DNA from: Phycisphaerales bacterium | GTDB taxonomy: Bacteria; Planctomycetota; Phycisphaerae; Phycisphaerales; UBA1924 | Length of the DNA stretch: 64,000 nt | Assembly: GCA_029260515.1 (NCBI GenBank) | Contig: JAJDDC010000048.1 | Span: 31,671-95,670 of the forward strand | Direction of reading: 5' to 3' | Shown here: positions 24,564 through 50,305 of the stretch, one piece after another | Numbering within the stretch: position 1 is the first letter of the stretch | Layout of the letters: each line of letters starts with the position of its first letter | The notes under the pieces: model-generated | What the model saw: the letters and a program-made list of their open reading frames with translations, nothing else | What the model was told of the DNA's origin: nothing | The model's database searches: none | Program-made: the position numbers and the translations under genes

Positions 24564-24734
24564 AGGTTGAAACTCTATGCCGCCCCGCGATCTCGTCCGA
24601 TCACCCTCGGCCCGGCCCGGGGGGCCGATCCATAGTCCGAGATTCCTTGTGCGAACCCCGGCCCACGGTGTAGCGTTGTGGAAGGGGAGGGCGGCCGCCC
24701 TCTCCCGCGCTCGACCCGACCGGAGATCCCGCAG

Positions 24735-30344: not shown

Positions 30345-30498
30345 GACACCCTCCGATCGCTCGGCATACTCGCGGTCAGCCCCCACGCACCTGGGGCGCC
30401 GTCGGGATACCCATCATCGGGCCCAACGCCCGCAGTCCAAGTATATTGCCCCAAACGAAAACCCCCGCGTCGGTCGGACGCGGGGGCGGAATTCCAAG

Positions 30499-34505: not shown

Positions 34506-35033
34506 ATGCACAACGTCGAGTACAAAGCCGAGCTCCGCGACCCGCTCGTCGCCCGCGCCATCGCCAAGAAGATCGGCGCCACCCTCGACGCCACGCTCGA
34601 CCAGACCGACACCTACTTCCGCGTCACCACCGGGCGCCTGAAAAAACGAGAAACCACCGAGCAAGGCCACGGCCCCCTCCCCACCCAGTACATCTTCTAC
34701 GACCGCGCCGACATCGTCCGCCCCAAGCTTTCGCACTACACCCTCTACACCGAAGACGAGGCCCGAGAGCGCTACGGCCAGCGCCCACTCCCCACCGACA
34801 TCGTCGTCAAAAAACGCCGCGAGCTCTGGCTCGCGGGCACGGCACGAATCCACCTCGACCACGTCGAGAACCTCGGCCACTTCATCGAGTTCGAGGTCCC
34901 CATCCACCCCAAGAGCTCCGTCACCGCCGCCCGCGACAAGACCGAGCAGCTCAAGGCCCACTTCGCCCCCGCCCTCGGCGAACCCATCGCCCTCGGCTAC
35001 CGCGACCTGATCGCCGCCGACGAAGAAGGCTGA
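34506..35033 (+). CDS. CYTH-domain protein (class IV adenylate cyclase / CyaB-like)
   Basis: The N-terminal NVEYKAEL (ExExK-type signature), a size of ~175 aa, and HLDHVENLGHFIEFEV near the C-terminus are typical of CYTH/CyaB. Confidence 0.7.
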   Translation: MHNVEYKAELRDPLVARAIAKKIGATLDATLDQTDTYFRVTTGRLKKRETTEQGHGPLPTQYIFYDRADIVRPKLSHYTLYTEDEARERYGQRPLPTDIVVKKRRELWLAGTARIHLDHVENLGHFIEFEVPIHPKSSVTAARDKTEQLKAHFAPALGEPIALGYRDLIAADEEG

Positions 35034-36256
35034 GTCGGGGCGCCCACCTCGCGCCCCGTCGCCTGACCCACAAGCAGCCCGATCAGCACACTCATCACAA
35101 ACACGCACCAGTCCTTCTGCGCCGACAGATCGAACACAGACATCGCCAGCAGCGCGACCGTCGAGGCGAGCACGCCGAGGCTGATCCCGTCAGCACCCGC
35201 GTCCCGCCTTGCCCCCCGCCACGCCGTCACGAGCACGGCGCCGGCGAGTGCGCACATCGCCGCCAAGCCGAGGACGCCACGCTCGCCGAGGAACTCGAGG
35301 CACACGTTGTGCGCCCACGGGATCTCCGCGATCAGCGGCGTGTAGCCATCGGGCAGCCGCACCCGCGCCAGGTACCCCGGGTAGAACAGCCCATACGTGT
35401 GCGGCCCCTTGCCCACGATCGGCGCCTCCCGGAACATCTCCCACGCCACCAGCCACAACCCGAGCCGTCCCTCGGACTGCAGACTCAGCGTCTCGAGCAC
35501 GCGCCCGCGAACCCCGCCCGCGTCCACCGCCCACGCCGCGCCCCCCACCGCGGCGATCGCGCCAAGGACGACCCACCGCGACACCCCGCGCAGCCCGACG
35601 ATCGCGACCACGAGCCACGCGAGCACGACACCCCCCAACGCCGTGCGGCTCTGGGTCAGCGCCGCCGCCGCCAGCACGGGGACCCCGCCAAGCGTGAGCC
35701 CCGCCAGCCGCCACGCCCCACGCCGCCCGACGAACAGGCACAACAAGAACGGCAGGCACGCCGCCGCCAGCGCAAAGTCGTTCGGGTGCGGCAGGCTCCC
35801 CGGGTAGCGTCCACCCATCGGTCCCTGCCCCGACAGCACGCTCCGCCCCACCCGCCACTGCACGAGCACGTCCAACGAAACCACCGCCGCGACACTCGCC
35901 AGCCCCCCAACGATCATCCACAACGCCCGCGGGTGCGACACCGCGTGCGCGCTCGCGAACAGCAGCAGCACCCCGATCGACAACGGCGCCAGCCCCTGTG
36001 CACTCAGCGACCGATCGACCGAGAACGCCGTCGAGACCAGCTGACTCAGAATGAAGACACAGCACGCGGCGCCCATCACCGTCACCCGAAACGCCCTCGC
36101 CTCGTTCACCCGCCCCGCGACCGCCCCCACCGCGACAACAACCACGCCCGCCGTGAACATCCACGTCGGCGCCGCATCGCCAACCGCCATGAGCACGAGC
36201 AGCAGCGCCACCCCGCCGCCGGCGATCCAGGGCGTGAGCCGCCGCCACCTGTCCAT
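34997..36256 (-). CDS. O-antigen ligase (Wzy_C) family polytopic membrane protein
   Basis: Start is ATG 36256 (MDRWRRLTPW). It has about 10 hydrophobic helices, LTQSRTALGGVVLAWLV (the usual SR-containing loop context) and a large periplasmic loop. Its start shares one nucleotide with the stop of the upstream LVIVD gene (TGATG). Confidence 0.7.
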   Translation of the reverse strand: MDRWRRLTPWIAGGGVALLLVLMAVGDAAPTWMFTAGVVVVAVGAVAGRVNEARAFRVTVMGAACCVFILSQLVSTAFSVDRSLSAQGLAPLSIGVLLLFASAHAVSHPRALWMIVGGLASVAAVVSLDVLVQWRVGRSVLSGQGPMGGRYPGSLPHPNDFALAAACLPFLLCLFVGRRGAWRLAGLTLGGVPVLAAAALTQSRTALGGVVLAWLVVAIVGLRGVSRWVVLGAIAAVGGAAWAVDAGGVRGRVLETLSLQSEGRLGLWLVAWEMFREAPIVGKGPHTYGLFYPGYLARVRLPDGYTPLIAEIPWAHNVCLEFLGERGVLGLAAMCALAGAVLVTAWRGARRDAGADGISLGVLASTVALLAMSVFDLSAQKDWCVFVMSVLIGLLVGQATGREVGAPTQPSSSAAIRSR

Positions 36257-37533
36257 CACGTAGCCGACACCCGCGTCCGTCGGCGCCCACCACCCCCGCA
36301 CGGCGCCCCCAGCGCCGCGACCGCAACCGGCGCGACGGCCCACCCCCACACCTCCCCCGGCCTGTAGAGGTACCGCCCCCCCTCGGGTAAAGCCGAGTAA
36401 TACGGCGAGCACCTCTCGCACGCATCAAAGGCCTGAATGAACGCCAGAACGTCAGAGAAGTCGAACTCGCCTTCCGGTTCGGCGAGATCTGCCTCAGCCG
36501 CCCCGCTCCCGAACGCGATCAGGAATGCCATCGCATCGAAGGAGTCCAGCGCCCCCTGCGGCTCGGCCAGGTCCGCGTGCGCGCACGCAAGCGCCCGCGA
36601 GAGATCCAGCGTCCGCAAACCGTTCTCGAGTATATAGGCCACATCGCCCTGCGCGTGGACTCCATACGAGTACGAGATGCTGGCAGTGGCGCCGACTTCG
36701 ACAGGCCTCGTCGGATCACTCACGTCAAACACGCGCACCCCCGCCCCCAGGCTCGTGATACAAGCAAGCGAGCCGGACATCGACACACCCCACCCGAAGT
36801 CGCCCAACTCGAGCATACCGACCATCGCCGGCGCCGCCGGATTGCGGACGTCGAACACCTCGAAGACCCCCGGCGAACGAACGCAGACCACGCTAACCGA
36901 CACGGCCAAGTTTCCGCCTGATGTAGACGCCGAGCCCCTGATCATCGGCGCAGTCGGATCCATGACGTCCACCACCAGGAGCAAACCCGCTTCCGTTGTC
37001 ACGTACGCGAACGCCCCCTCGCACACGAGGTCCTGGACGGCGCCCTCGATCTCGAGCTCCCCGACGACCACCAGATCCCTCGGGTTGGTCACATCCAGCA
37101 CAAGCATGCCCGAGGCCGCCTCTACGCACACGACCGAGCCGTCAAGCACGAGGCCCAAGGCGCCGCTCGCGATATGGGTGCGGTGAAGAACCACCGGGTT
37201 GTCCGGATCGCTGATATCCACGGATTGCAGCCCCTCCCATACATCGGAATCCGATAGGAACGCGATCGTCCCGTCGATCGCGACGCCCAAAGATGAGTAC
37301 GGGGTCAGGACGAACGACAAGAAGTCCGGGTTCGCCGGGTCCGACACGTCGTAGATCAGCATTCCAATGGTGTCCGCCGCAACGCAAAGCACGCCATCAG
37401 ACACATCCGCCCCCTGCATATGTGTCCCGAAGACCGACCTCCCAAGCTGTGGAACGTCACACACCTGGGCGCAGCACACCGACGCGCCCCCCACGCACAC
37501 AAACGCAGCCAAGACGCTCACCCGCACACGCAT
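36256..37533 (-). CDS. LVIVD-repeat beta-propeller protein with dockerin-like module, CxxC and PEGGRYLYRP-TM-Arg tail (425 aa)
   Basis: Start is ATG 37533 with GGAGG upstream. Signal is MRVRVSVLAAFVCVGGASVCCAQ. It contains repeats such as LIYDVSDPANP, LQSVDISDPDNP, LVLDVTNPRDL, VVDVMDPTAP, FDVRNPAAP and VFDVSDPTRP. The C-terminal 109 aa are described in the repeat features. Confidence 0.8.
   Translation of the reverse strand: MRVRVSVLAAFVCVGGASVCCAQVCDVPQLGRSVFGTHMQGADVSDGVLCVAADTIGMLIYDVSDPANPDFLSFVLTPYSSLGVAIDGTIAFLSDSDVWEGLQSVDISDPDNPVVLHRTHIASGALGLVLDGSVVCVEAASGMLVLDVTNPRDLVVVGELEIEGAVQDLVCEGAFAYVTTEAGLLLVVDVMDPTAPMIRGSASTSGGNLAVSVSVVCVRSPGVFEVFDVRNPAAPAMVGMLELGDFGWGVSMSGSLACITSLGAGVRVFDVSDPTRPVEVGATASISYSYGVHAQGDVAYILENGLRTLDLSRALACAHADLAEPQGALDSFDAMAFLIAFGSGAAEADLAEPEGEFDFSDVLAFIQAFDACERCSPYYSALPEGGRYLYRPGEVWGWAVAPVAVAALGAPCGGGGRRRTRVSAT
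36409..36585 (-). repeat. dockerin-like double repeat, internal copy ending in CxxC
   Basis: CAHADLAEPQGALDSFDAMAFLIAFGSGAAEADLAEPEGEFDFSDVLAFIQAFDACERC, followed (36259-36408) by SPYYSALPEGGRYLYRPGEVWGWAVAPVAVAALGAPCGGGGRRRTRVSAT. Confidence 0.75.
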
Positions 37534-37574
37534 CACGCCTCCACACCCCCCGGCCGCCATCGCCAACACCCCCC

Positions 37575-38849
37575 TCACGCTCCCCGCCGGTCCCGCCGGA
37601 CAACGATGAGAGGCAGCCCGACCGCCGCCAACGCCGCTGTCACCGGCGCGTACCCGCCCACGCCCTCCGGGCGGTACAGGTACCGCCCACCCTCCGGCAC
37701 GACCGCGTACGGATTGCATGTATCGCACTCGTCGAACGCCCCGAGGAACGCACTCACGTCGGCGAGATCGAACACCCCTGCTGGCTCGGCCAGGTCCGCC
37801 GCGGCCTCCTCCGCCGCGAACGCCGCCACGAACCCCAGCACGTCGGAGTAATCCAAAGCCCCCGCCGGATCCGCGAAATCCGCACGCACGCACGCCATCG
37901 GGATCGACAGGTCCAGGCTCCATACCCGCCCGTCGGCGCCGGTGTAGGCGACCGCGCCGTCTACGGCGACCCGGCCCGCGAGCTCGAACGCCGACGTCGT
38001 GCCGACCTCGACCGGGTTCGTCGGATCGCTGATGTCGATCGCGCGGACGCCAGCACCCGGGCTCGTGATATACGCGACCGAGCCGGACAGCGTGACCGAC
38101 CCGGACTGGTGCATGTGGTCGATCGAGCCGAGCAACTCCGGATCCAGCGGGTCGCTCAGGTCGTAGAGCTGCAAGTATCCATCTGCCCGTAAGGCGAGCA
38201 GCTCACCTTCGATATCGAGGGTTCCCCGACGTTGCACCCGGGCATTCTCCACCACGACCGGGGCGCTCAGGTCCGTCAGGTCCAGTATCCGTATATTGCT
38301 GGTCATCCCGGACCGGTAGGACACGTACGCGTACTGTCCCGAGAGGGCCACGCCGTAGTTCGAGGAGATGAAAACGTTGCTGACATACGCCGGATGGCTC
38401 GGGTCGGCGAGATCGAAGATGCGGAGTCGGCCGGCGGATGAGCGCGTGCACGCGAACGTTCCCGAGGCGGAGATGCGCAGCTCCGAGCCACCGACCCCCG
38501 GTTCTACATGCACCTCGATCGGATCCGCCGGGTCGCTGAGATCGAAGACCTTCAGGTCGCCGCCCTGCCCCACATACGCGAGCGTCCCTCGTATCTCCAC
38601 GTACCACGTGTACCCGTTCGACGGCACCGATGACATGAGCCTCGGGTCCGTCGGATCGCTCACGTCGTACACCAACAACAGGCGCTCGTAAGTCGCCGCC
38701 AGACACAGCACATCCCCGGACACGGACGCCTTTGCGCTTCCCACTCCGTACGCGGCCTCCCCGATCACCGAGATGTCGCACACCTGCGCCCACGATCCCG
38801 ACCACACCCCGCCCACGCACACCAACGCGGTCAGCACCGGAAGCCTCAT
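37575..38849 (-). CDS. LVIVD-repeat beta-propeller protein, paralog of 36256..37533, same composite C-terminus (424 aa)
   Basis: Start is ATG 38849 with GGAGGAG upstream. Signal is MRLPVLTALVCVGGVWSGSWAQ. Repeats include LVYDVSDPTDP, KVFDLSDPADP, RIFDLADPSHP, ILDLTDLSAP, LYDLSDPLDP and AIDISDPTNP. Confidence 0.8.
   Translation of the reverse strand: MRLPVLTALVCVGGVWSGSWAQVCDISVIGEAAYGVGSAKASVSGDVLCLAATYERLLLVYDVSDPTDPRLMSSVPSNGYTWYVEIRGTLAYVGQGGDLKVFDLSDPADPIEVHVEPGVGGSELRISASGTFACTRSSAGRLRIFDLADPSHPAYVSNVFISSNYGVALSGQYAYVSYRSGMTSNIRILDLTDLSAPVVVENARVQRRGTLDIEGELLALRADGYLQLYDLSDPLDPELLGSIDHMHQSGSVTLSGSVAYITSPGAGVRAIDISDPTNPVEVGTTSAFELAGRVAVDGAVAYTGADGRVWSLDLSIPMACVRADFADPAGALDYSDVLGFVAAFAAEEAAADLAEPAGVFDLADVSAFLGAFDECDTCNPYAVVPEGGRYLYRPEGVGGYAPVTAALAAVGLPLIVVRRDRRGA
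37716..37892 (-). repeat. dockerin-like double repeat, internal copy ending in CxxC
   Basis: CVRADFADPAGALDYSDVLGFVAAFAAEEAAADLAEPAGVFDLADVSAFLGAFDECDTC, followed (37578-37715) by NPYAVVPEGGRYLYRPEGVGGYAPVTAALAAVGLPLIVVRRDRRGA. Confidence 0.75.
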
Positions 38850-39002
38850 GGGATCTCCTCCGTCCGCCATCCCCCCGAGGGTCGTGGAAGCCCACACTGT
38901 ACCAGAGGCGCCCTGCGCCACAAAGCCGCCGCATGTCCCCCCACGCAAGAACAGCCCCAAAACGCATCGAGGCCCCCGCTCCCACGGGGGCCTCCGACGC
39001 AA

Positions 39003-39075
39003 TGGGCAGGGGCGGACTTGAACCGCCGACACCCGCATTTTCAATGCGGTGCTCTACCAACTGAGCTACCTGCCC
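39003..39075 (-). tRNA. tRNA-Phe (GAA)
   Basis: The reverse complement is GGGCAGGTAGCTCAGTTGGTAGAGCACCGCATTGAAAATGCGGGTGTCGGCGGTTCAAGTCCGCCCCTGCCCA, a perfect cloverleaf with anticodon loop TTGAAAA. Confidence 0.95.
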
Positions 39076-39261
39076 TGCCGAGGCCCGTGCCCCGGGGACG
39101 ACAACAATACCTGACCCCCCCGCCCCGTCAACCCGCCCCGCGATGTCCTGTGCCCTTCCCCAAGGTCCGCAAACCCGGGCCGGGCCCGTAACCCTTGATC
39201 CGCCGCCCGGTGCGTGGACAATGAGCCTGCCGGGCCCCACCCCGAATCGAGAGAGACACCG

Positions 39262-40662
39262 ATGCGTTCCACCAGCGACACCGCCCTGATCGCCGCGATC
39301 CTCATCGCAATCAAGACACTCGTCGCCGCCGGGACCGCGGCCGCCCAGTGCGACGGCGGACTCCCCGACGCCCCCGACTGGGACTTCCAGCTCCAGTGCC
39401 GCTCATCGCTCGACGCCGGCATCGTCCCGTTCAACCTCCCCTTCCCCTCCTCGCTCTCGAGCCAGTACCTCGCCCTCGACCAGGACGCGGGCGTCGCCAT
39501 CCGCTATTTCTCCTCGGGCGCCCACACCGAGGGCGTCTTCTACGGCATCGACGCCGTCGGCTCCTCCATCATCCAGGTCTCCAGCGGTGACTCGGTCTAC
39601 TCCACCGACATCGACCTCAACGCGGGCATGCTCGCGATCGCCGACGGCCCCTTCGGCGCCGGCGGCGCCCACGTCTTCGACACCGCCGGCTCCGTCATCC
39701 AGAACTTCCCCGCCGGAGGGCCCCAGTCCCTCTCGGGCATCGGCTCGCCGTCCATGCTCGCCGACGGCGCCATCGCCTACCGCGCCGACTTCGGGTTCGA
39801 GGACGTCATCGCCATCGACGAGTTCGACGGCCCGGTGCGCACCCAGACCGTCCTCGCCTCCACCCTGGGCGACTATTCGTTCCTCTTCTCCCCAGCCGCA
39901 AACGACGCCCGCCAGGTCGTCGCCAACACGATCCCAAACGTGGGCCCGACGCGCCGCATCGTCCGCTTCGAGACCGACGGCTCGCCCACGACCGTTGCAC
40001 AGACGGGCGCGACCTTCAACGCTTTCGTCAACTCCACCGCCATCGCGTCCAACGGCTTCGTCGCCTTCACCGCCCGCCGCGCCGCAGACTCCATCTGGGC
40101 CGTCTACCTCTGGGACGGCGCCGCTCTCACCGAGATCGCCTCGGGCGCAGACCCCGACATCAGCAACGGCTCGCTCGCCAACTTCCCACCCGTCGTCAAC
40201 GCACTGGGCTGGGTCGCCTTCCGCGCCACCGACGCCGCCAACAACTCCACCGCCCTCTGGGTCGGCGACGGCGACACCCTTGTCAAGCTCCTCGAGTACG
40301 GCCAACTCGTGCCGACCGACCTCGGCGACCTGCCCGCCGGCTTCGACTTCGGCGGCGGCACCGGCAAGCAAACCATCAACGGCGTCATCGACATCAACGA
40401 CGCCGGCCAGGTCGGCGTCGCCTCCTTCTTCCGAAACGGCACCATCGGCGTCTACGTCGCCACCCCCAACATCGCAGTCCCCTGCAACCCCGTCATCGGC
40501 TACGCCGAACCCTGCGACGTCGCCGACTTCTCCGACGTCGTCGCCTTCCTCATCCTCTTCTCCGAGGGTGACCCCGCCGCAGACCTCGCGGCCCCCGAAG
40601 GCCAGTTCGACTTCTCCGACGTCATCGCATTCCTCACGTACTTCTCCAAAGGCTGCCCGTAA
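39262..40662 (+). CDS. secreted NxxGxxAF-type repeat protein with dockerin-like GCP module (466 aa)
   Basis: Start is ATG 39262 (MRSTSDTALIAAILIAIKTLVAAGTAAAQ). It contains repeats such as VNALGWVAFRA, ASNGFVAFTA, LADGAIAYRA and INDAGQVGVASF. It ends ...YFSKGCP. Confidence 0.75.
   Translation: MRSTSDTALIAAILIAIKTLVAAGTAAAQCDGGLPDAPDWDFQLQCRSSLDAGIVPFNLPFPSSLSSQYLALDQDAGVAIRYFSSGAHTEGVFYGIDAVGSSIIQVSSGDSVYSTDIDLNAGMLAIADGPFGAGGAHVFDTAGSVIQNFPAGGPQSLSGIGSPSMLADGAIAYRADFGFEDVIAIDEFDGPVRTQTVLASTLGDYSFLFSPAANDARQVVANTIPNVGPTRRIVRFETDGSPTTVAQTGATFNAFVNSTAIASNGFVAFTARRAADSIWAVYLWDGAALTEIASGADPDISNGSLANFPPVVNALGWVAFRATDAANNSTALWVGDGDTLVKLLEYGQLVPTDLGDLPAGFDFGGGTGKQTINGVIDINDAGQVGVASFFRNGTIGVYVATPNIAVPCNPVIGYAEPCDVADFSDVVAFLILFSEGDPAADLAAPEGQFDFSDVIAFLTYFSKGCP
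40483..40659 (+). repeat. dockerin-like Cys-bracketed double repeat (first repeat divergent)
   Basis: CNPVIGYAEPCDVADFSDVVAFLILFSEGDPAADLAAPEGQFDFSDVIAFLTYFSKGCP. Confidence 0.8.
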
Positions 40663-40698
40663 CACCCCAGCCCGACGCCGCCTCCCCAAGGACCACCC

Positions 40699-41760
40699 AT
40701 GCCCCGCCTCACCCCCGCCCTCCTCGCCGCCCTCACCGCCACCCCCGCGCTCGCGGCGGACAACTACGCCTTCGTCATCAACCAGGGCGCCAGCGCCGTC
40801 TCCGCCACCACGGCAATCACCGCCGCCTCCGACGGCTCGCTCATCGGTGACCACGACGCGGCCACAAACCCCGACGGGACACAGACCCGCCCGGGCCTCT
40901 TCGGCGGCTCGGGCAACAACGCCATCCCCGTCTCCATCGACTTCGACATCACGACCACAATCGACTCCGCCCCGACCGGCGGCTTCGCACTCGCGCTCGA
41001 CACCGACGCGCTCACGTTCACCATCGGCGACCTCGCCGCCGACCTGCTCTCGGGCGACACCGCCGACTCCGCACTCGAGGCCACCTTCCTCTGGAACTCA
41101 TTCAACACCATCAACCCCTCGGGTATCTTCATCGGCGGCCTCCCCATCTCCCTCCCCCTCTCCACAACGCAGCTCACCACGCTCACCATCGCCCAGTCCG
41201 GCCCGATGACCACCGCCGGCGTCGCCGTCGAGACCGACCCGGGCGTCTACACGCTCGTCGGCGCGATCCCAGCGACCATCACGCTCGCCGCCGATTCCGC
41301 AACGCTCCCCATCCCCGAGACACCTTTCGACGCGACGCTCCCCATCGCCGGCACGATCACTCTCGCGCCCGACGACACCGCGACGATCGAACTCACGCTC
41401 GACCTGGCGAACATCGTCCAGGACATCGACCTCTCGGGCGCCCCGCCCGTCGAGGACGTGCCCTTCCCCCTGCCCACACTCTCCGGGGACACCGCGAACG
41501 TCCTGCTCACCCTGCAGTTCTCGCTCGCGTCTATCGAGTCGTCGGGCGCGATCTCGATCGTCGCCGATGCGGCGCCATCCGGGTGCAACGCCGCGGACCT
41601 CGCCGAGCCATTCGACGTCATCGATTTCTCCGACGTCCTCGCGTTCCTGACCGCGTTCGGCGCCAGCGACGCGGCCGCCGACCTCGCCGACCCGGAGGGC
41701 GTCTTCGACTTCTCCGACGTCATTGCGTTCCTCTCCGCCTTCGGCGCCGGCTGCCCCTGA
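40699..41760 (+). CDS. secreted protein of unknown function with dockerin-like GCP module (353 aa)
   Basis: MPRLTPALLAALTATPALA signal. The body is Thr/Ala/Asp-rich with no recognised domain. It ends ...SAFGAGCP. Confidence 0.75.
   Translation: MPRLTPALLAALTATPALAADNYAFVINQGASAVSATTAITAASDGSLIGDHDAATNPDGTQTRPGLFGGSGNNAIPVSIDFDITTTIDSAPTGGFALALDTDALTFTIGDLAADLLSGDTADSALEATFLWNSFNTINPSGIFIGGLPISLPLSTTQLTTLTIAQSGPMTTAGVAVETDPGVYTLVGAIPATITLAADSATLPIPETPFDATLPIAGTITLAPDDTATIELTLDLANIVQDIDLSGAPPVEDVPFPLPTLSGDTANVLLTLQFSLASIESSGAISIVADAAPSGCNAADLAEPFDVIDFSDVLAFLTAFGASDAAADLADPEGVFDFSDVIAFLSAFGAGCP
41584..41757 (+). repeat. dockerin-like Cys-bracketed double repeat
   Basis: CNAADLAEPFDVIDFSDVLAFLTAFGASDAAADLADPEGVFDFSDVIAFLSAFGAGCP. 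Confidence 0.85.
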
Positions 41761-41881
41761 GGGCTGTTCGCCGCCCCGGACGCAACCCCACGCCCCCCGC
41801 CGACGTAGGGGCCAGTGTCTTTCTCTTTGGGCGTGGGTCGCGCCCGCCATCCCATCCAGGCACTCCCCGACGAGGTTCCCG

Positions 41882-43810
41882 ATGCCCACGAGCCGACGCT
41901 GCGCCATCCTCACCGCCGCCCTCACCGCCGCGATCACGGCTCCAGCCCTCGCGGCCCCCGTCAACACGCTCATCTCCGAGCCCGCGCCAAACGCCGCGCT
42001 CGACTACGCCCGCCGCTCCGCGATCAGCGCCATCGACACCGCGACGCTCGTATCCCTCGCCAACGCCCCACGCGCCGCGACCACGATCGAGCTCGACCTC
42101 CTCGGCGCCCCCGCATCGCTCACCACCCGCCGCGTCCAGCACCACGCCTCGGGCGCCGTCTCCATCTTCGCAGACTTCGCCGACAACCCCGACGCATCGG
42201 CTGTCATTACCACACTCGACGGATTCGTCTCCGCCCGCCTCGAGCACCCCACGCTCGGCGCGTTCACCATCGAGCCCACGCCCATGCGTGACGACGACGG
42301 CGCCCCGCTCCACCGCGTCAACGAGATCGACCCGGCCGGCTTCATGCCCTGCGCCACCAACTGGGCGCCCGCGAACGCCGGGTCGCCCGACGACACCGCC
42401 GCGCCACCCCGCGGCGTCCAGTTCGTCGACATGATGATGCTCTACACCCCCGCCGTCCGCAACACCCTCGGCGGCCACACCCCCGCCATCGTCTTCTGCC
42501 AGAACGCCATCGACCTTGCCAACGACGCCTACGACCTCTCTGGCATCACACAGGTCCAACTCCGCATGGTGCACGTCGAGCAAGTGGACTACGTCGAGTC
42601 GGGAAACACAGGCACGGACCTCACACGCCTGCGGAACTCGGGAGACGGCAACTTCGACCACATCCACACCACGCGCAACCAGGTCGGCGCCGACAACGTC
42701 GCGCTCATCGTCAACTTCGCCAACAACGCCTGCGGCCAGGCCGCCAGCCTCAACCCCGTCAACGCCAATCTCGCCTTCTCTGTCTCCGCCCGCGGCTGCG
42801 CGATCGGCAACATCACGTTCCCCCACGAGGTCGGCCACACCATGGGCTGCGCCCACGACCACCAGAACACCGGGGGCAGCTTCTACTCATACGCGTTCGG
42901 GCACCTGTTCCAGGACGGCAACGGCATCAACCGCCGCACCATCATGGGCGTCTCCTCCGGCTCGCGCATCCAACGCTTCTCCAACCCCGACGTCCTCTTC
43001 GTCGGCGTCCCCACCGGCGTCGCCTCCGGGTCCAACGCCGCCGACAACGCCCGCGCCCACGACAACTCCGCGAACGACATGTCCACCCACCGTGACGACT
43101 TCGGCTGCCTCCCGTTCGCCATTATCGGACAACCCGCGGACGAGGCCGCTTGCGTCGGCTCCGCCATAGACCTCTCTGTACAGGTCTTCGCCGAGGACAT
43201 CGACGAGGTCTCCTTCCAGTGGCGCAAGAACATCATCCCGATCCCCGGCGCCACCTCGCAGAGCCTCACGATCCCGTCCGCGGCCCTCTCCGACGCGGGC
43301 ATCTACGACGTCCTCGTCTCCAGCCCCTGCACCTCCTTCAACTCCGACATCGTCCAGGTCAGCGTGGACAACCCCACCTTCGATACCCAGCCCCAGTCCC
43401 AGACAGCGCAGCCCGGCGACGACGTCGTCTTCTCCGTCGTGTTCGCGATCCCCGATACCCAGATCTTCTGGCTCAAGAACGGCCAGCTCATCATCACCGC
43501 CACCAACACCGACACGCTCACACTCAACGACGTCACCGAGGCCGACGAGGCGACCTACACCGCCAACGCCGTCGCGCCCTGCGGCACGATCGTCTCCAAC
43601 GCCGCGACCCTGACCGTCGGCGCCCCCGCCGGCTGCAACGCCGCCGACCTCGCCGAGCCGTTCGACACGCTCGACTTCTCAGACGTCATCGCGTTCCTCT
43701 CGGGCTTCGCCGCGATGGAGCCCACCGCCGACCTCGCCGCTCCCCAGGGCGTGTTCGATTTCTCCGACGTCGTCGCGTTCCTCAGCGCCTTCGGCGCCGG
43801 CTGCCCCTGA
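41882..43810 (+). CDS. secreted metzincin (reprolysin/M12B-like) zinc metalloprotease with two Ig-like domains and dockerin-like GCP module (642 aa)
   Basis: Start is ATG 41882 (MPTSRRCAILTAALTAAITAPALA). FPHEVGHTMGCAHDH is an HExxHxxGxxH motif. Two I-set-like Ig repeats are present (SFQWRKNIIPIPGATSQSLTIPSAALSDAGIYDVLV; FWLKNGQLI...VTEADEATYTANA). Confidence 0.85.
   Translation: MPTSRRCAILTAALTAAITAPALAAPVNTLISEPAPNAALDYARRSAISAIDTATLVSLANAPRAATTIELDLLGAPASLTTRRVQHHASGAVSIFADFADNPDASAVITTLDGFVSARLEHPTLGAFTIEPTPMRDDDGAPLHRVNEIDPAGFMPCATNWAPANAGSPDDTAAPPRGVQFVDMMMLYTPAVRNTLGGHTPAIVFCQNAIDLANDAYDLSGITQVQLRMVHVEQVDYVESGNTGTDLTRLRNSGDGNFDHIHTTRNQVGADNVALIVNFANNACGQAASLNPVNANLAFSVSARGCAIGNITFPHEVGHTMGCAHDHQNTGGSFYSYAFGHLFQDGNGINRRTIMGVSSGSRIQRFSNPDVLFVGVPTGVASGSNAADNARAHDNSANDMSTHRDDFGCLPFAIIGQPADEAACVGSAIDLSVQVFAEDIDEVSFQWRKNIIPIPGATSQSLTIPSAALSDAGIYDVLVSSPCTSFNSDIVQVSVDNPTFDTQPQSQTAQPGDDVVFSVVFAIPDTQIFWLKNGQLIITATNTDTLTLNDVTEADEATYTANAVAPCGTIVSNAATLTVGAPAGCNAADLAEPFDTLDFSDVIAFLSGFAAMEPTADLAAPQGVFDFSDVVAFLSAFGAGCP
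43634..43807 (+). repeat. dockerin-like Cys-bracketed double repeat
   Basis: CNAADLAEPFDTLDFSDVIAFLSGFAAMEPTADLAAPQGVFDFSDVVAFLSAFGAGCP. Confidence 0.85.
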
Positions 43811-43933
43811 GCAACCCGCCCGCCCGCCCTTGACGCTCCAGCGCCGTTCCGCGACACTCGGGCTGCCGATCTCCTATGAACACGGAGGCGGCGGTACTGG
43901 TTCGCCCCGCGGCAGCCCCCAGAGGAGAGTCTG

Positions 43934-46915
43934 ATGACCCCCAAGGCCGTTCTCGCCGCCACCGCCACCCTTTCGGGCGGCGCGGTCTTCGCACTCGCCC
44001 TCACCTCGGCCACTCCCCGCGACGCCACGCCGCACCTCATCGCCCGCGGCCTCGTTGACGAGTTCGTGAACTGGGAGAACCCCCACGTCCACCCGCTGGA
44101 CATGACCCCAGACGCCTCCCGCCTCCTGGCCGTCAACACCGCCGACAACCGCCTCGAGATCTTCTCGCTCACCGGCGCCTCGCCCGCGATCGAGGCCACT
44201 GTCCCCGTCGGCCTCGACCCCGTCGCGGTCCGTGCACGGACCAACACCGAGGCCTGGGTCGTCAACCACATCTCCGACTCGGTCTCGATCGTGGACCTGA
44301 CGACCATGAACGTCGTCGCGACGATCCAGACCGCCGACGAACCCGCGGACGTGATCTTTGCCGGCGCCCCGCAGCGCGCCTTCGTCACCTGCTCGCAGGC
44401 AAACCTCGTTCAGGTCTTCGACCCCGCCACCCCCGGTGCGCCCATCGCCGAGATCGCCATCGAGGGCGAGGACCCCCGCGCCCTGGCCGTCAGCCCCGAC
44501 GGCGCCACCGTCTACGCCGCCATCTTCGAGTCAGGCAACGCGACCACCATCCTCGGCGGGGGCATCGCCGACAACAACACACTCGCCTTCCCCCCCAACG
44601 TCGCCTCCCACCCGCTCGGCCCGCACAACGGCGCCAACCCCCCGCCCAACGACGGCGCCGCCTTCAGCCCCCCCGAGAACGGCGCGAACCCCAACCCACC
44701 CCGCGTCGGCCTCATCGTCCGCCGCGACGCGCTGGGCAATTGGCGCGACGACACCGGCGCGGACTGGACCAACCTCGTCTCGGGCGACCTGGCCGCCCTC
44801 TCCGGGCGAATCCCGGGCTGGACGCTCGTGGACCACGACGTCGCCGTCATCGACGCCTCGTCGCTCGGCGTGTCCTACGCCACCTCGCTCATGAACACGA
44901 ACATGGCCATCGCCGTCAACCCCGTCAGCGCCGAGATCGCCGTCGTCGGTCTGGAGGCGACCAACGAAGTCCGCTTCGAGCCCATCGTCAACGGCCGCTT
45001 CGTCCGCGTCCTCGCCGCCCGCGTCGATCCCCTCGACACCGCCAACTCCACCACCACCGACCTCAACCCCCACCTCACCTACACGACGGGCCCCGACTTC
45101 ATCCCCGAACTCCAGTCCACCCGCGACCAGTCCGTCGGCGACCCCCGCGCCATCGTCTACTCCCCCGACGGCCTCACCGCCTACGTCGCGGGCATGGGCT
45201 CCAACAACGTCGCCGTCTTCGACGCCTCGCTCACCCGCGGCGCCCCAAGCTCGACCTTCGAGGTCGGCGAAGGCCCCACCGGCCTCGCCTACGACGACGC
45301 CCGCTCACGCCTCTACGTCATGAACAAGTTCGCCGGCTCCATCTCCGTCGTCGATCTCTCCGCGTCCGGCGACCCCACCCTCGAGATCCCCTTCTTCGAC
45401 CCCACCCCAGCATCCATCAAAACCGGGCGCAAGCACCTCTACGACACCCACGCCAACTCGGGCCTGGGCCAGGCCTCGTGCGCCTCGTGCCACATCGACG
45501 CGCGCACCGACCGCCTCGCCTGGGACCTGGGCGACCCCGCCGGCGACATGAAGGACTTCGAGGGCAACTGCCCCGACGGCGGCTGCACCGACTGGCACCC
45601 CATGAAGGGGCCCATGACCACCCAGACACTCCAGGACATCATCGCCAAGGAACCCCACCACTGGCGCGGCGACCGCACCGGCATCGAAGAGTTCAACGGC
45701 GCCTTCATCTCCCTCCTCGGCGACGACGACAACCTCACACCCGCCCAGATGCAGGAGTTCGAAGACTTCCTCGCCACCATCCACTTCCCGCCAAACCCCT
45801 TCCGCAACGCCGACAACTCCCTGCCGACCAACCTCCCCCTCGACGGGCACTACACCACCGGCCGCTTCGCCCCCGCCGGCCAACCCCTGCCCAACGGCAA
45901 CGCCGTCGCCGGCCTCAACGAGTACCGCTTCGGCAACCTCGACGCCCCCTTCCAGTGCGTCACCTGCCACACCCTCCCCACAGGCATGGGCGCCAACATC
46001 GACTTCCTGGGCCTCCCCCCCTTCGACCAGCTCCCCCCCGGGCCCGACGGCGAACTCCACCACGCCCTCGTCTCCCTCGACGGCTCCACCAACCGCTCGA
46101 TCAAAATCCCCCAGACCCGTTCCATCCACGAGAAGACCGGCTTCAACACCACCCAACTCCGCAACACCGCCGGCTTCGGCGTCCTCCACGACGGCTCCGT
46201 AGATTCCATCGAACGATTCGTCGCCGAGCCCGCATTCGCCGTCAGCTCCGACCAGGAGATCGCGAACATGACCGCCTTCATGCTCGCCTTCTCCGGCTCC
46301 GACCTCCCCGAGCCCCAGGGCGCCCTCGAGCCCCCCGGCCCCCCCAGCCTCGACACACACGCCGCCGTCGGCATGCAGACCACCCTCGACGGCTCGGAGT
46401 CCGGCGACCTCGCCCTCCTCACCACACTCAAGGACGAGGCCGACCTCACACGCATCGGCCTGATCGCCAAGGGCGTCTACCAGGGCGAGCACCGCGGCTT
46501 CACCTACCTCGGCGCCAACCTCTACCAGTCCGACCGCGCCGCACAGACCATCTCCCACGCCGCGCTCATCGCCGCCGCCGCACCGGGCGCACAGATCACC
46601 TTCACCGCCGTCCCCCTCGGCGCGCAGTTCCGCATCGGCATCGACCGCGACTCCGACCTCTTCTACGACTCCGACGAGCTCGACGCCTGCGCCGACCCCG
46701 CCGACCCCGCCTCCACACCGCTCAACAGCACCTGCGGCTGCGGCGCCGCCGACCTCGCCGAGCCCCTGGGCGTCCTCGATTTTTCCGACGTCCTGGCCTT
46801 CCTCACCGCGTTCGGAACCATGGACCCCGCCGCGGACCTCGCCGCCCCGACAGGCGTCTTCGACTTCTCCGACGTCCTGGCCTTCCTGACCGCCTTCGGC
46901 GCCGGCTGCCCATGA
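43934..46915 (+). CDS. secreted YVTN-type beta-propeller fused to a two-CxxCH (di-haem cytochrome c peroxidase-like) domain and dockerin-like GCP module (993 aa)
   Basis: GAGGAG RBS. YVTN-like repeats are present (LLAVNTADNRLEIFS, AWVVNHISDSVSIVD, AFVTCSQANLVQVFD, VYAAIFESGN, AYVAGMGSNNVAVFD, LYVMNKFAGSISVVD). Two haem-c motifs are CASCH (45479-45493) and CVTCH (45956-45970). Confidence 0.8.
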   Translation: MTPKAVLAATATLSGGAVFALALTSATPRDATPHLIARGLVDEFVNWENPHVHPLDMTPDASRLLAVNTADNRLEIFSLTGASPAIEATVPVGLDPVAVRARTNTEAWVVNHISDSVSIVDLTTMNVVATIQTADEPADVIFAGAPQRAFVTCSQANLVQVFDPATPGAPIAEIAIEGEDPRALAVSPDGATVYAAIFESGNATTILGGGIADNNTLAFPPNVASHPLGPHNGANPPPNDGAAFSPPENGANPNPPRVGLIVRRDALGNWRDDTGADWTNLVSGDLAALSGRIPGWTLVDHDVAVIDASSLGVSYATSLMNTNMAIAVNPVSAEIAVVGLEATNEVRFEPIVNGRFVRVLAARVDPLDTANSTTTDLNPHLTYTTGPDFIPELQSTRDQSVGDPRAIVYSPDGLTAYVAGMGSNNVAVFDASLTRGAPSSTFEVGEGPTGLAYDDARSRLYVMNKFAGSISVVDLSASGDPTLEIPFFDPTPASIKTGRKHLYDTHANSGLGQASCASCHIDARTDRLAWDLGDPAGDMKDFEGNCPDGGCTDWHPMKGPMTTQTLQDIIAKEPHHWRGDRTGIEEFNGAFISLLGDDDNLTPAQMQEFEDFLATIHFPPNPFRNADNSLPTNLPLDGHYTTGRFAPAGQPLPNGNAVAGLNEYRFGNLDAPFQCVTCHTLPTGMGANIDFLGLPPFDQLPPGPDGELHHALVSLDGSTNRSIKIPQTRSIHEKTGFNTTQLRNTAGFGVLHDGSVDSIERFVAEPAFAVSSDQEIANMTAFMLAFSGSDLPEPQGALEPPGPPSLDTHAAVGMQTTLDGSESGDLALLTTLKDEADLTRIGLIAKGVYQGEHRGFTYLGANLYQSDRAAQTISHAALIAAAAPGAQITFTAVPLGAQFRIGIDRDSDLFYDSDELDACADPADPASTPLNSTCGCGAADLAEPLGVLDFSDVLAFLTAFGTMDPAADLAAPTGVFDFSDVLAFLTAFGAGCP
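46739..46912 (+). repeat. dockerin-like Cys-bracketed double repeat
   Basis: CGAADLAEPLGVLDFSDVLAFLTAFGTMDPAADLAAPTGVFDFSDVLAFLTAFGAGCP. Confidence 0.85.
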
Positions 46916-46919
46916 TTCG

Positions 46920-46952
46920 TTGATTCAGACTTTATGCCGTATTGTGAATCAA
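46920..46952. promoter_or_regulatory. AT-rich inverted repeat upstream of 47021 gene (candidate operator/promoter)
   Basis: TTGATTCA (46920-46927), a 17-nt spacer, then TGAATCAA (46945-46952). It is preceded by a direct repeat TGATTCGT/TGATTCAG. This is one of the most AT-rich stretches I saw in an otherwise GC-rich window. Confidence 0.3.
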
Positions 46953-47020
46953 TTCCGCTCGAACCGTGCACCCCACGCGGTATCCTGAATACGACGCACC
47001 AGCACCCCGGGGGATTTGCC

Positions 47021-48328
47021 ATGACGACGCACCGTCTCGCATTCGCCGTCCTCCTCGCCACCGCCCCCGCCCCCGCCTCGCCCGACCTCATCGCCGGCGG
47101 CATCGACTCGGTCAACCACTACGGCGAGGTCGCCGGCGCCCACGCCTACTCGTTCGGCGCCACCGTCTGCAATGTTGGCTTCGACCCGACAACCTACAAC
47201 CACCTCACCAACCAACACCCCGTCATCGCCCAGCATCTCTACCGCATCGCGGACGGGCGTCTCGAGCAGATCGGCATGTCGTGGGCCTTCCACACATTCT
47301 TCGCGCTCGAGCAAGGCATCTGCGCCACATGCACCCCAGTCGGCGGCGGCTCCCTCGGCCCCGGCTGCGCGACCTCAGACGCCGCCGGCATCCTCGGCGG
47401 CCAGCCGCAACTCGGTCCCCGCTTCGAGATCAACGCCGCCACCGGCGCCTTCGACTTCCCCTTCTCCAATCCCGGCGGCGAACTCGGCGACATCATCTTC
47501 AAACGCGTCCAGGTCCCCACCAGCCTCCTCTCCCCCGACGCCACGTACATCGCCGAACTCCAGGTGCTCTCCCCCGAGGACCTCGGCGCCACCGCCACCA
47601 ACAACGCCTCCCACCGCACGGCCAATCTGCAGCCCAACGGAAGCCTCACGCTCTCGGGCGACACGCAGCGTGAACGCCCCGCGATCCTCGCATGGGCAGA
47701 CCTCGACCCCGACGTCGTCGTCCGGACCATCGACATCCCGGGCGACGGCCGCTTCCACGCCGCCGCCAAAGTCATCAACCAGGGCGACGGGACCTGGCGA
47801 TACCACTACGCCATCCACAACCTCAACTCGCACCGCGCCGCCAACGGCATCATCATCCCCGCCTTCGTCTTCCAGGTCACCGACACCGAGTTCCACGCGC
47901 CCCACTATCACTCGGGCTCCCCCGTGGACAACGTGCCGTGGGAGTTCACGCCCGGCGCAATCTCCGTCGCCTGGTTCGCCCCGGAGCACACCCCCGCGAA
48001 CGATCTCTCCGCCAACGCCCTCCGCTGGGGCACGACCTACACGTTCTCCATGACCGCCCCCGCCCCCCCGGTCGAGGCCGACGCCACCGTCTACCTCTTC
48101 CGCCCGGGCGCCGAAAACTCTTTCTCGGTCTCCCTGCCAGTCCCCGGCGCGCAGTGCCTCGCCGACCTCGCAGCGCCGTTCGGCCAACTCGATTTCTCCG
48201 ATGTCCTCGCGTTCCTCCTGGCGTTCGCCGCCGAGGATCCGGCCGCAGACCTCGGCGCCCCGACCGGGGTCTTCGATTTCTCAGACGTCACGGCCTTCCT
48301 CACGGCGTTCAGCGCGGGCTGCCCCTAG
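47021..48328 (+). CDS. secreted protein of unrecognised Cys/His-rich family with dockerin-like GCP module (435 aa), paralog A
   Basis: Start is ATG 47021 (MTTHRLAFAVLLATAPAPASP). It shares conserved blocks with the next gene (see findings). It ends ...AFSAGCP. Confidence 0.75.
   Translation: MTTHRLAFAVLLATAPAPASPDLIAGGIDSVNHYGEVAGAHAYSFGATVCNVGFDPTTYNHLTNQHPVIAQHLYRIADGRLEQIGMSWAFHTFFALEQGICATCTPVGGGSLGPGCATSDAAGILGGQPQLGPRFEINAATGAFDFPFSNPGGELGDIIFKRVQVPTSLLSPDATYIAELQVLSPEDLGATATNNASHRTANLQPNGSLTLSGDTQRERPAILAWADLDPDVVVRTIDIPGDGRFHAAAKVINQGDGTWRYHYAIHNLNSHRAANGIIIPAFVFQVTDTEFHAPHYHSGSPVDNVPWEFTPGAISVAWFAPEHTPANDLSANALRWGTTYTFSMTAPAPPVEADATVYLFRPGAENSFSVSLPVPGAQCLADLAAPFGQLDFSDVLAFLLAFAAEDPAADLGAPTGVFDFSDVTAFLTAFSAGCP
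48155..48325 (+). repeat. dockerin-like Cys-bracketed double repeat
   Basis: CLADLAAPFGQLDFSDVLAFLLAFAAEDPAADLGAPTGVFDFSDVTAFLTAFSAGCP. Confidence 0.85.
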
Positions 48329-48413
48329 AGCCCCCAACCACCGGTCCATTTCCACTCGGCCCGCGAGCCGCAGCGCGGTACGATGCCCCTGCACCCACAC
48401 GCAGGGGACCCCC

Positions 48414-49739
48414 ATGACCGCACGCCGCCTCACCGCCGCCGCCATCGCCCTCGCCGCCCCGGCAGCACTCGCCGGCCCCGACCTCATCACCGGCGAGATC
48501 TCGACCTCTGTCCACTACGGCCAGATCGACGCCGTCCACGCCTACGCGTTCGCAACCACCGCCTGCAACCTCGGCGACGCCGACATCAACTGGTTCATCG
48601 ATTCCCCCGCCCACCCCGTGACGATCGAGAACCTCTACCGCGTCCACGACGGCCACCTCGAACAGGTCGGCCTCTCGTTCGCCGCCCACACCGTCATCCC
48701 GCTCCAGAACAACCTCTGCTCGACCTGCATCCCCGCCGCCGGCTTCCAAAGCCTCGGCGCCGGCTGCTCCAACACCAACGCCGCCTCGATCATGGGCGCA
48801 CAGGCCTACCTCGGCTCCCGGTCCGAGATCAACGCCTCCACCGGCGCATTCCCGTTCCCCCACGACACCGCCGACGAGCCGCTCGGCGACCTCCTCAACC
48901 GCCGCCTCCAGGTCCCCGAATCGCTCCTGACCCCGGGAGACACGTACTTCATCGAGGTCCAGTACGTCGCCGCCGACGACGCCGACGCCGGCCTCGGCGC
49001 GAACAACGCTTCCTCGCGCACCGCGACCCTGAGCCCCGCGCTCACGTTCGCACCCACGGGCGACACCCACCGCCAGATCCCCGCCATCCTCGCTTGGGCC
49101 GACGCCGACCCCGACGTCGTCGTTGAAACCGTGGACATCCCGGGCGACGGCCGCTTTCACATCGCCGCCAAGGTCGTCAACCTGGGCGACGGCACGTGGC
49201 GCTACCACTACGCCATCCACAACCTCAACTCCCACCGCGCCGCCGCCAGCCTCTCCGTCCCCATCCGCGTCGAAACCGTCTCCGACCCCATCTTCCAAGC
49301 CCCCCTCTACCACTCCGAATCCCCCGTCAACAACGCCCCCTGGGCCTTCTGGATCGGCAACGGCGACGTCGCCTGGTTTACCGACGCCTACACCCCCGAG
49401 AACGAACTCTCCGCCAACGCCGTCCGCTGGGGCGCCATGTACACCTTCTCCATGACCACCCAGTCTGGCCCTATCACCGACGACGTCACCATCGGCCTCT
49501 TCCGCCCCGGCGCCGCCCCGGCTTCCTTCTCCGTCCCCCTCCCCACCCCGGGCCCACGGTTCTGTTCCGGCGCCGACATCGCCGAGCCCTTCGGCCAGCT
49601 CGACTTCTCCGACGTCATCGCCTTCCTCACCGCCTTCGCCCTGGGCCAGCCGATCGCCGACTACGCCGAGCCCTTCGGCCAGTTCGACTTCTCCGACGTC
49701 ATCGTCTTCCTCTCCGAGTTCGCCGAAGGCTGCCCCTAA
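48414..49739 (+). CDS. secreted protein of the same unrecognised family with dockerin-like GCP module (441 aa), paralog B
   Basis: Start is ATG 48414 (MTARRLTAAAIALAAPAALAGP). It is collinear with paralog A. It ends ...EFAEGCP. Confidence 0.75.
   Translation: MTARRLTAAAIALAAPAALAGPDLITGEISTSVHYGQIDAVHAYAFATTACNLGDADINWFIDSPAHPVTIENLYRVHDGHLEQVGLSFAAHTVIPLQNNLCSTCIPAAGFQSLGAGCSNTNAASIMGAQAYLGSRSEINASTGAFPFPHDTADEPLGDLLNRRLQVPESLLTPGDTYFIEVQYVAADDADAGLGANNASSRTATLSPALTFAPTGDTHRQIPAILAWADADPDVVVETVDIPGDGRFHIAAKVVNLGDGTWRYHYAIHNLNSHRAAASLSVPIRVETVSDPIFQAPLYHSESPVNNAPWAFWIGNGDVAWFTDAYTPENELSANAVRWGAMYTFSMTTQSGPITDDVTIGLFRPGAAPASFSVPLPTPGPRFCSGADIAEPFGQLDFSDVIAFLTAFALGQPIADYAEPFGQFDFSDVIVFLSEFAEGCP
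49563..49736 (+). repeat. dockerin-like Cys-bracketed double repeat
   Basis: CSGADIAEPFGQLDFSDVIAFLTAFALGQPIADYAEPFGQFDFSDVIVFLSEFAEGCP. Confidence 0.85.
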
Positions 49740-49894
49740 ACGACCAACCCGCAACAACTTGGGCCCTTCTACCTGGAATGTGAACACCCGCGGTGTCAGC
49801 GACGACGCACAACGGGCGGCCCACGCACACGCAACAGCCTGAAACGCGGCCCCGCGCTTCCCGTACCAATGGAAGCCACACAGGAGACCCACCC

Positions 49895-50305
49895 ATGCTG
49901 CGCTCGCTCGCCATCGCCGCCCTGCTGACATCCGTCGCCTTGCTCTCGGGCTGCATCGTCTCTGTCAAGAGCAACGACACCCACGCCTACACCGCCAACT
50001 CGCACCGCACGGTCTCCGCCCCGGTGTTCGCCGATCTCGTCGAGCAGAACAAGCACGTCCACCTGGGCATGAGCCGCGAGAGCGTCCTCGCCCACTACCC
50101 CGCCGATCTGCTCACCAAGTTCGACGCCTCCCAGCACGAAGGACGCCAGCTCGAGACCTGGCAGGTCTTCGCCTACTCCTCTTCCAAGAACGCCAAGTTC
50201 GAACGCTGGCTCTACTTCATCGACGGCTCACTCGTCGAGATGGCCCGCTCCGAGATCGACTACGCCGACGACCCCGCGACCCTCGACCGCTGGCTCAAAA
50301 ACTAA
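49895..50305 (+). CDS. small lipoprotein (136 aa)
   Basis: AGGAG lies 8 nt upstream of ATG 49895. MLRSLAIAALLTSVALLSGC contains a lipobox (LSGC). Confidence 0.7.
   Translation: MLRSLAIAALLTSVALLSGCIVSVKSNDTHAYTANSHRTVSAPVFADLVEQNKHVHLGMSRESVLAHYPADLLTKFDASQHEGRQLETWQVFAYSSSKNAKFERWLYFIDGSLVEMARSEIDYADDPATLDRWLKN

Follow-up and report, generated by a model that had tools for sequence, protein, structure and literature searches.

A 64,000-nt stretch of a Phycisphaerales genome (contig JAJDDC010000048.1; hereafter the window) encodes eleven proteins that end in one short Cys-bracketed module, catalogued by NCBI as the GC-type dockerin. By the profile comparisons described below, this tail is a genuine but derived dockerin, recognizable through intermediates and not by a direct match. 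On balance, we lean toward the interpretation that it is a disulfide-locked, probably Ca2+-independent docking tail, through which a large Sec-exported proteome is kept attached to a common receptor in the envelope.

Genes in the window, which has a G+C content of 69%, were taken as open reading frames (ORFs) with high G+C at third codon positions. A hidden Markov model (HMM) built from the module and searched against the six-frame translation found the Cys-bracketed double repeat in exactly the eleven coding sequences listed by an earlier, sequence-only reading of this DNA. E values were 5e-34 to 5e-28 for ten ORFs and 4e-13 for the divergent copy in 20195–20572, and no further ORF was found below E = 1. 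Each module consists of two tandem repeats with the loop A-D-L-A-x-P-x-G-x-[FL]-D-F-S-D. Eight of the eleven modules end exactly at GCP and the stop codon, while that of 20195 ends in GCD; a GC[PD] C terminus is thus present in nine proteins, the exceptions being two genes with LVIVD propeller heads that run on for ~50 residues beyond the module. Signal-peptide-like N termini, judged by eye, are present in all ten complete genes. The sequence-only reading had described these ends, signal peptides and heads in the same way, the heads now being backed by NCBIfam and Pfam matches and by motifs. Its suspicion that the tail was already catalogued also proved right: all eleven proteins pass the curated cutoff (29 bits) of NCBIfam NF041540, "dockerin_GC", with 33.0–46.0 bits in ten and 36.2 bits in 20195, and NCBI already names relatives in Phycisphaerales metagenome-assembled genomes (MAGs) as GC-type dockerin. 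Across unrelated heads, the mean column identity of the window modules is 69%. At the DNA level, the modules are 74% identical and the longest exact shared run is 37 nt, which rules out recent gene conversion as the source of their similarity. The protein sequence is therefore under common selection, as would be expected if the tails met one shared partner.

The relationship of this module to dockerins emerged from orthologs. Of the two kinds of model that the sequence-only reading had singled out, the NCBIfam model recognized the module but the Pfam dockerin model did not: Dockerin_1 (PF00404, cutoff 22.9 bits) and EF-hand models gave no match to the isolated modules at E ≤ 10 or to the whole proteins at E ≤ 0.01. 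EF-hand matches appeared only in ancestral-type relatives such as P0301 and P0314, all below the Pfam cutoffs. Searching PDB sequences with the module profile (hmmsearch) returned nothing relevant, and when the module was aligned directly by hhalign with three PDB-verified clostridial dockerins, the probability reached only 0.2–2%. The head of g40699 (Table 1) has 66 full-length relatives with 30–72% identity, the tails of which, at the same C-terminal position, form a graded series: (i) plain dockerins of planctomycetes, free of cysteines and with both loops of the DxNxDG kind (PF00404, 28–36 bits); (ii) Cys-bracketed tails with canonical loops (PF00404, 34.8 bits for P0301, 28.2 bits for P0314 and 10.7 bits for P0308); (iii) tails with one canonical and one ADLAxPxG loop; and (iv) the window type, in which both loops read ADLAxPxG, the chain ends in GCP and Pfam gives no match. 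By hhalign, window-type tails (iv) align to bracketed tails (ii) with 98.2% probability (E = 3e-13), bracketed tails to plain ones (i) with 98.8%, and plain tails to clostridial dockerins with solved structures with 96.4%. The graded tails and these stepwise links therefore make the module a true but derived dockerin, in line with the kinship proposed earlier.

The predicted structure agrees with this assignment. AlphaFold2 (AF2) modeled the module of 41882 with a mean predicted local distance difference test (pLDDT) score of 93.7 and placed helices at residues 20–31, 35–37 and 48–60, which is the dockerin helix order. The repeat pattern and the model together correspond to two tandem F-hand repeats (loop plus helix) in a three-helix arrangement. 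Structure prediction, which the sequence-only reading had proposed as a check, thus bore out the fold, but Foldseek of the 63-residue model against the PDB could not confirm it and gave noise only (best E = 8), the domain being too small for fold comparison.

The window type differs from the ancestral type in its loops. Every window copy has, in each of its two loops, Ala and Pro at canonical ligand positions 3 and 5 and one extra residue (DxNxDG to ADLAxPxG), a departure from the canonical Ca2+ ligand pattern (positions 1, 3, 5, 9 and 12; D-x-[DN]-x-[DN]-G) that speaks against the earlier idea of Ca2+ binding as in dockerins and EF-hands. Asp is kept at loop positions 1, 10 and 13. Canonical loops survive in more distant family members. 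Among the 66 g40699-head orthologs, derived loops are found in 37 of the 51 tails with a C-terminal Cys and in 0 of the 15 without (Fisher p = 3e-7, phylogeny not corrected for), and either loop can change first. Since derived loops occur only in tails with the C-terminal Cys, the Cys bracket seems, from this comparison, to have preceded the loss of Ca2+ ligands.

The two cysteines are near-invariant (389 and 395 of 403 aligned modules), which made covariation between them uninformative. The first Cys lies three residues ahead of the residue preceding loop 1, and the second is penultimate, before the C-terminal Pro. In ordinary dockerins, a non-covalent intramolecular clasp joins positions −1 to −3 with C-terminal residues, often Pro; this clasp is general and helps both to stabilize the dockerin and to bind cohesin (Slutzki et al. 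2013, PMC3821032). Because both cysteines of the GC-type module occupy these known clasp positions, a Cys–Cys bond, raised as an idea in the sequence-only reading, is plausible, and the predicted disulfide would amount to a covalent clasp. Such a bond would have made Ca2+-driven folding dispensable. A 585-residue DsbA/thioredoxin-domain protein (locus L073, 4739–6496, minus strand) is encoded a few genes from the Cys-bracketed ortholog P0314 of a Phycisphaerales MAG; this proximity may be coincidental, yet it is relevant to disulfide formation. In the window itself, a membrane-anchored protein (29370–30386, minus strand; ortholog in L063) has at least five canonical DxDGDG EF-hand-type loops and matches Pfam Dockerin_1 at E = 4e-7. 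Ordinary Ca2+-binding loops therefore persist in the same genome as GC-type tails that lost them.

These observations suggest the following scenario. A Phycisphaerales dockerin gained a Cys before loop 1 and a Gly-Cys-Pro C terminus at the clasp positions, and afterwards lost two canonical Ca2+-ligand positions per loop. The module is fused to the extreme C terminus of many Sec-exported proteins, including proteases, β-propellers, adhesin-like repeat proteins and heme enzymes. After export, oxidation of the two cysteines would form the covalent clasp and lock the fold without Ca2+, and the conserved, Phe-rich acidic surface of the module would then dock these proteins onto one shared cell-envelope receptor that is not a recognizable cohesin, thereby keeping the exoproteome cell-associated. 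A more far-reaching version, which we put forward tentatively and consider possible but doubtful, takes the GC-type dockerin as the cargo tag of an undescribed Phycisphaerales surface-display system for ~3% of the proteome (at least 90 proteins per genome). This Ca2+-independent, disulfide-clasped tag would have evolved from a cohesin-binding module, would be recognized by a non-cohesin receptor (a new protein fold or an envelope glycan) and would be equivalent to type IX secretion system (T9SS) or PEP-CTERM sorting.

Several points weigh against a Ca2+-independent docking tail. The three acidic positions kept in each loop (D1, D10 and D13) leave room for a possible non-canonical Ca2+ site, and phylogeny confounds the link between loop loss and the Cys bracket. 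A recognition-and-processing signal is likewise compatible with a module at the very C terminus and with its invariant GCP ending. Searches for a cohesin came back empty in all scanned window ORFs, beside two orthologs with canonical or bracketed dockerins (Pfam) and in the six-frame translation of 1.2 Mb of related loci, the last being a weak test by crude phmmer with a single approximate CipA cohesin query. The receptor gene is possibly located elsewhere in the genome.

A scaffoldin encoded elsewhere and too divergent to recognize is also what a canonical Ca2+-dependent cohesin–dockerin assembly would require, that is, a non-cellulolytic "planctosome" of the kind hypothesized for Nemodlikiaceae (Phycisphaerae) (Andrei et al. 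2019, PMC6461901). Dockerin homology as such points in this direction, as do the M12B reprolysins, M14 carboxypeptidase and S8 subtilases among the family heads, which are classes in that model, and the near-identity of the two repeats, which recalls dual-binding type I dockerins. The loss of Ca2+ ligand positions 3 and 5 in both loops and the cohesin searches above argue against it, and we consider such an assembly quite unlikely. The all-β head of g40699 was weighed as a hidden cohesin and rejected: its confident AF2 model reaches template modeling (TM) scores of ≤0.19 against the PDB and is not cohesin-like.

The size of the family was estimated from several searches. A pattern scan covering one genome per species gave 220 confirmed matches, and the best 80 of these all belong to MAGs assigned to Phycisphaerales, Phycisphaerae or Planctomycetota. 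Searched exhaustively with the HMM, 1.84 billion cluster representatives yielded 4,689 matches at E ≤ 1e-3 and 1,679 at E ≤ 1e-10, with the module C-terminal in nearly all of the top 150. In 1.16 Mb of flanks fetched for related loci, 268 modules were found. Single genomes are rich in them, with at least 90 different module genes in MAG ABC1.169 (GenBank JAWKTB01; on contigs that sum to ~3.5 Mb) and at least 71 in MAG20 (JBHIWH01). In the related loci, 159 of 198 consecutive module ORFs are directly adjacent and 176 of 198 are on the same strand. Same-strand arrays are the rule in the Phycisphaerales-type lineage and the window region is one cluster among many, contrary to the local enrichment that the sequence-only reading had taken to be unusual.

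The strict terminal position of the module invites comparison with C-terminal sorting or secretion signals such as the T9SS C-terminal domain (CTD) or PEP-CTERM, whereby an envelope machinery would recognize the tail, move the cargo through the outer membrane or onto it, and then remove or modify the tail, for example at the invariant Cys. Of the 268 modules in the related loci, 238 run right up to the stop codon, and GCP closes 232 of 260 unique tails. In other phyla, LVIVD relatives carry T9SS Por_Secre_tail (PF18962), FlgD_ig or Dockerin_1 at their C termini, and several window heads match "choice-of-anchor" or MYXO-CTERM-anchored families. With the same heads carrying other anchors elsewhere, the GC-type module therefore fills the slot of a surface-sorting tag, and the NCBI name itself says "domain-anchored". 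The properties of the module fit a signal less well. Its demonstrable relatives are binding modules and not signals; it is internal in two window genes, where a separate transmembrane/Arg tail follows; and no candidate sorting enzyme recurs beside module genes. It has no hydrophobic span that could serve as the transmembrane helix of a PEP-CTERM or MYXO-CTERM tail, and it neither matches the ~80-residue β-sandwich of the T9SS CTD in Pfam nor resembles it in the AF2 model, which is helical. We regard a sorting signal as unlikely and a docking tail as the better description of the module.

The heads borne by the family are diverse. A set of 100 family representatives matched 44 Pfam families, including FG-GAP, β-helix, reprolysins, subtilases, LVIVD, M14 carboxypeptidase, Ig and NHL; no glycoside hydrolase or cohesin was among the 25 of these 44 families that were listed. 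No glycoside hydrolase was found among the window heads and no cohesin in the window, as the sequence-only reading had noted. The recurrent non-module neighbors are all generic, namely Ser/Thr kinases with TPR, ABC ATPases, response regulators, pseudopilins, oxidoreductases and sulfotransferases.

That no protein partner turned up in repeated searches is compatible with a module that binds a non-protein envelope polymer (lipopolysaccharide (LPS)/O-antigen, another glycan or peptidoglycan) or self-associates. The existence of an LPS outer membrane is shown by an LptD-like gene, a Wzy_C/O-antigen-ligase-like gene is coupled to two dockerin genes, and the module is small, acidic and aromatic-rich. 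The case is purely circumstantial, and the block of Wzy_C and LVIVD genes is specific to this genome among those examined. We know of no dockerin that binds glycans, and we judge polymer binding or self-association to be very improbable.

The organization of the locus was examined by comparison with related genomes. The sequence-only reading had described eight consecutive genes in a special island beside tRNA-Phe. All eight carry the module, but they form two units on opposite strands with the tRNA-Phe gene between them, and no single run. The six-gene plus-strand array (39259–49739) is syntenic in five other genomes (L011, L056, L032, L033 and L035) with 50–87% identity, together with the tRNA-Phe gene directly upstream of the g39259 ortholog and, downstream, genes for a lipoprotein, asnB and a membrane protein. 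This synteny and an unremarkable GC content rule out a mobile island for 39259–49739. Elsewhere in the window, 18–34 kb matches L063 and 61–64 kb matches L065. The two LVIVD heads had no match in the five syntenic loci, and in the same search the Wzy_C query had no match in any fetched locus; the LVIVD pair and the Wzy_C-like gene look like a lineage-specific block on the 3′ side of tRNA-Phe (34997–39075), in which no integrase was seen. The stop codon of 36256–37533 overlaps the ATG of the Wzy_C-like gene by 1 nt (TGATG), and the latter is apparently translationally coupled to the LVIVD–dockerin–transmembrane gene.

Within 24000–56000, the GC skew of the plus strand is strongly negative (−0.2 to −0.35) irrespective of gene orientation, and it flips to +0.25 to +0.38 within ~400 bp at ~52,300–52,500, inside the 5′ third of an intact asnB-like asparagine synthase gene (50971–52788, minus strand). 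The same flip occurs at the asnB ortholog of L011 (~18.5–19 kb) and of L056 (~14.5–15 kb). The pattern resembles that of a conserved origin or terminus of replication, with a skew of unusually large amplitude; no dnaA was seen near it.

Table 1. Genes with a GC-type dockerin and adjacent features, in window coordinates.
Feature	Coordinates	Strand	Details
Small secreted protein, 125 aa + divergent GC-type dockerin	20195..20572	+	Module 20381–20569, GCD end; NF041540 36.2 bits
TIGR03790-family head + GC-type dockerin	24732..26867	+	Module 26676–26864, GCP end; TIGR03790 82 bits, NF041540 40.6 bits
Wzy_C / O-antigen-ligase-like membrane protein	34997..36256	-	Pfam Wzy_C; weak TIGR03097 match
LVIVD propeller + GC-type dockerin + C-terminal extension	36256..37533	-	Module 36415–36600; extension 36256–36414
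Paralogous LVIVD propeller + GC-type dockerin + transmembrane/Arg tail	37575..38849	-	Module 37722–37907; tail 37575–37721
tRNA-Phe(GAA)	39003..39075	-	Boundary between variable LVIVD/Wzy_C block and conserved six-gene array
NxxGxxAF / MXAN_5453-like head + GC-type dockerin	39259..40662	+	Module 40471–40659; atypical first loop
All-β head without family assignment + GC-type dockerin	40699..41760	+	Module 41569–41757; orthologs give the dockerin transition series
M12B reprolysin-type metzincin with Ig domains + GC-type dockerin	41882..43810	+	Module 43619–43807; module AF2 pLDDT 93.7
YVTN/lactonase-type propeller + two CxxCH heme motifs + GC-type dockerin	43934..46915	+	Module 46724–46912
Head without family match (paralog 1) + GC-type dockerin	47021..48328	+	Module 48137–48325
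Head without family match (paralog 2) + GC-type dockerin	48414..49739	+	Module 49548–49736
Small lipoprotein, signal peptide ending LSGC	49892..50305	+	Conserved; follows the array immediately in each of the five syntenic loci
N-terminally truncated gene (cut by window end) + GC-type dockerin	63000..63998	-	Module 63003–63191, NFDDV variant; ortholog in L065

Among the individual heads, that of 24732..26867 scored above the TIGR03790 cutoff of 67 bits and has an ortholog with 70% identity in L063; PDB sequence searches with the g24732 and g47021 heads gave no useful match. The two LVIVD heads have each other as their only close relatives. Orthologs of 39259..40662 were found in four loci (73–77% identity) and those of 43934..46915 in five (71–83%). 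The head of g40699 (40699–41568) was modeled by AF2 as all-β with a pLDDT of 91.7, its longest strands reaching 27 residues. A check for internal repeats gave none, and comparison with PDB folds gave no meaningful match, the best TM scores (0.15–0.19) being to outer-membrane barrels and secretins. The family to which it belongs occurs widely in Phycisphaerales, is marked by invariant GxLIGDYD..TNP.GTQTRPGLFGGSGN motifs and, judging from the model, may represent a new fold or family. The tandem paralog heads 47021–48136 and 48414–49547 are ~52–56% identical to each other and had no Pfam, NCBIfam or PDB sequence match; both are kept in L011, more copies are present in L056, L015, L002 and L005, and their conserved His/Cys motifs (for example, HNLNSHRAA) suggest a putative metal site. 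The lipoprotein 49892–50305, with a mature part of ~115 residues after its LSGC lipobox, had no family match.

Another kind of C-terminal tail, a hydrophobic helix followed by an Arg/Lys cluster as in PEP-CTERM, occurs in four secreted proteins, at 5725–6567 (minus strand), 18232–20208 (plus strand), 36256–36414 (minus strand) and 37575–37721 (minus strand). One such tail, ...PAPAGLAVLGMGFMIGARRKRA, belongs to a lamin-tail-domain protein, and another, ...IGVLAVSRRKKESGNDNA, to a Peptidase_S74 chaperone-domain protein; none of the four tails matched known NCBIfam sorting-signal models. In the two LVIVD genes, the extension starts with CxxCxP..PEGGRYLYRP and continues with the hydrophobic helix and the Arg cluster. 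As these genes carry such a tail after the dockerin, the genome uses two types of C-terminal tag, which in some proteins stand in tandem.

Outside cellulosomes, dockerins that lack cohesins have long been puzzling, and little is understood of the surface biology of planctomycetes. The evidence that the GC-type module is a derived dockerin, the series in which the Cys bracket precedes ligand loss, the scale of the family and the conserved synteny are new here. Orthologs of one protein provide a natural experiment in which a Ca2+-dependent dockerin appears to gain a Cys clasp and then to lose Ca2+-ligand positions, and Pfam-based dockerin censuses miss thousands of proteins. If the docking interpretation is right, it would explain how a large exoproteome of proteases, propellers and heme enzymes is retained by cells of a widespread marine and freshwater lineage. 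It would also point to a receptor that a 57-residue bait could fish out, and would offer a small, metal-independent, oxidation-locked docking tag for protein engineering.

Among known systems, NF041540 is the closest entry, and it is a naming model only: a full-text literature search found no paper naming it or the GC-type dockerin module, and no description of a receptor, function, Ca2+ dependence or origin. For dockerins of Phycisphaerae, the one relevant work that literature searches brought up was the planctosome hypothesis. That proposal concerns the same class and shares M12B and M14 peptidases and lamin-tail-domain proteins with the present system, but it rests on Pfam-detectable cohesins and dockerins and on Ca2+-dependent binding, whereas the GC-type module escapes Pfam, has degraded Ca2+ positions and comes with no cohesin found (PMC6461901). 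A cellulosome is not indicated either, as the window has no glycoside hydrolase heads and no scaffoldin was found. The T9SS Por_Secre_tail, PEP-CTERM and MYXO-CTERM tails share with the module both the place that they take on the same families of heads and the strict C-terminal position; the GC-type module differs from them in being an α-helical mini-domain with no transmembrane segment, β-sandwich or associated sortase-like gene. With clostridial type I dockerins (PF00404; CelS, 1DAQ/2MTE; XynY, 1OHZ), to which it is homologous through intermediates in the absence of a direct Pfam, PDB or hhalign match, it shares two ~22-residue loop-plus-helix repeats, the helix order and a C-terminal position on many unrelated secreted heads. 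It departs from them in the lost positions 3 and 5, the inserted residue, the Cys bracket, the GCP end, the recognition positions 10/11 (Ser-Thr in clostridial dockerins, Phe-Ser here) and the lack of glycoside hydrolases or a found cohesin. The closest parallel to the Cys bracket is the dockerin clasp (PMC3821032), which lies at the same places as the Cys and GCP end of the GC-type module; that clasp is non-covalent and, in ScaADoc, dependent on Ca2+-induced folding, whereas the GC-type counterpart would be a disulfide accompanied by the loss of Ca2+ ligands.

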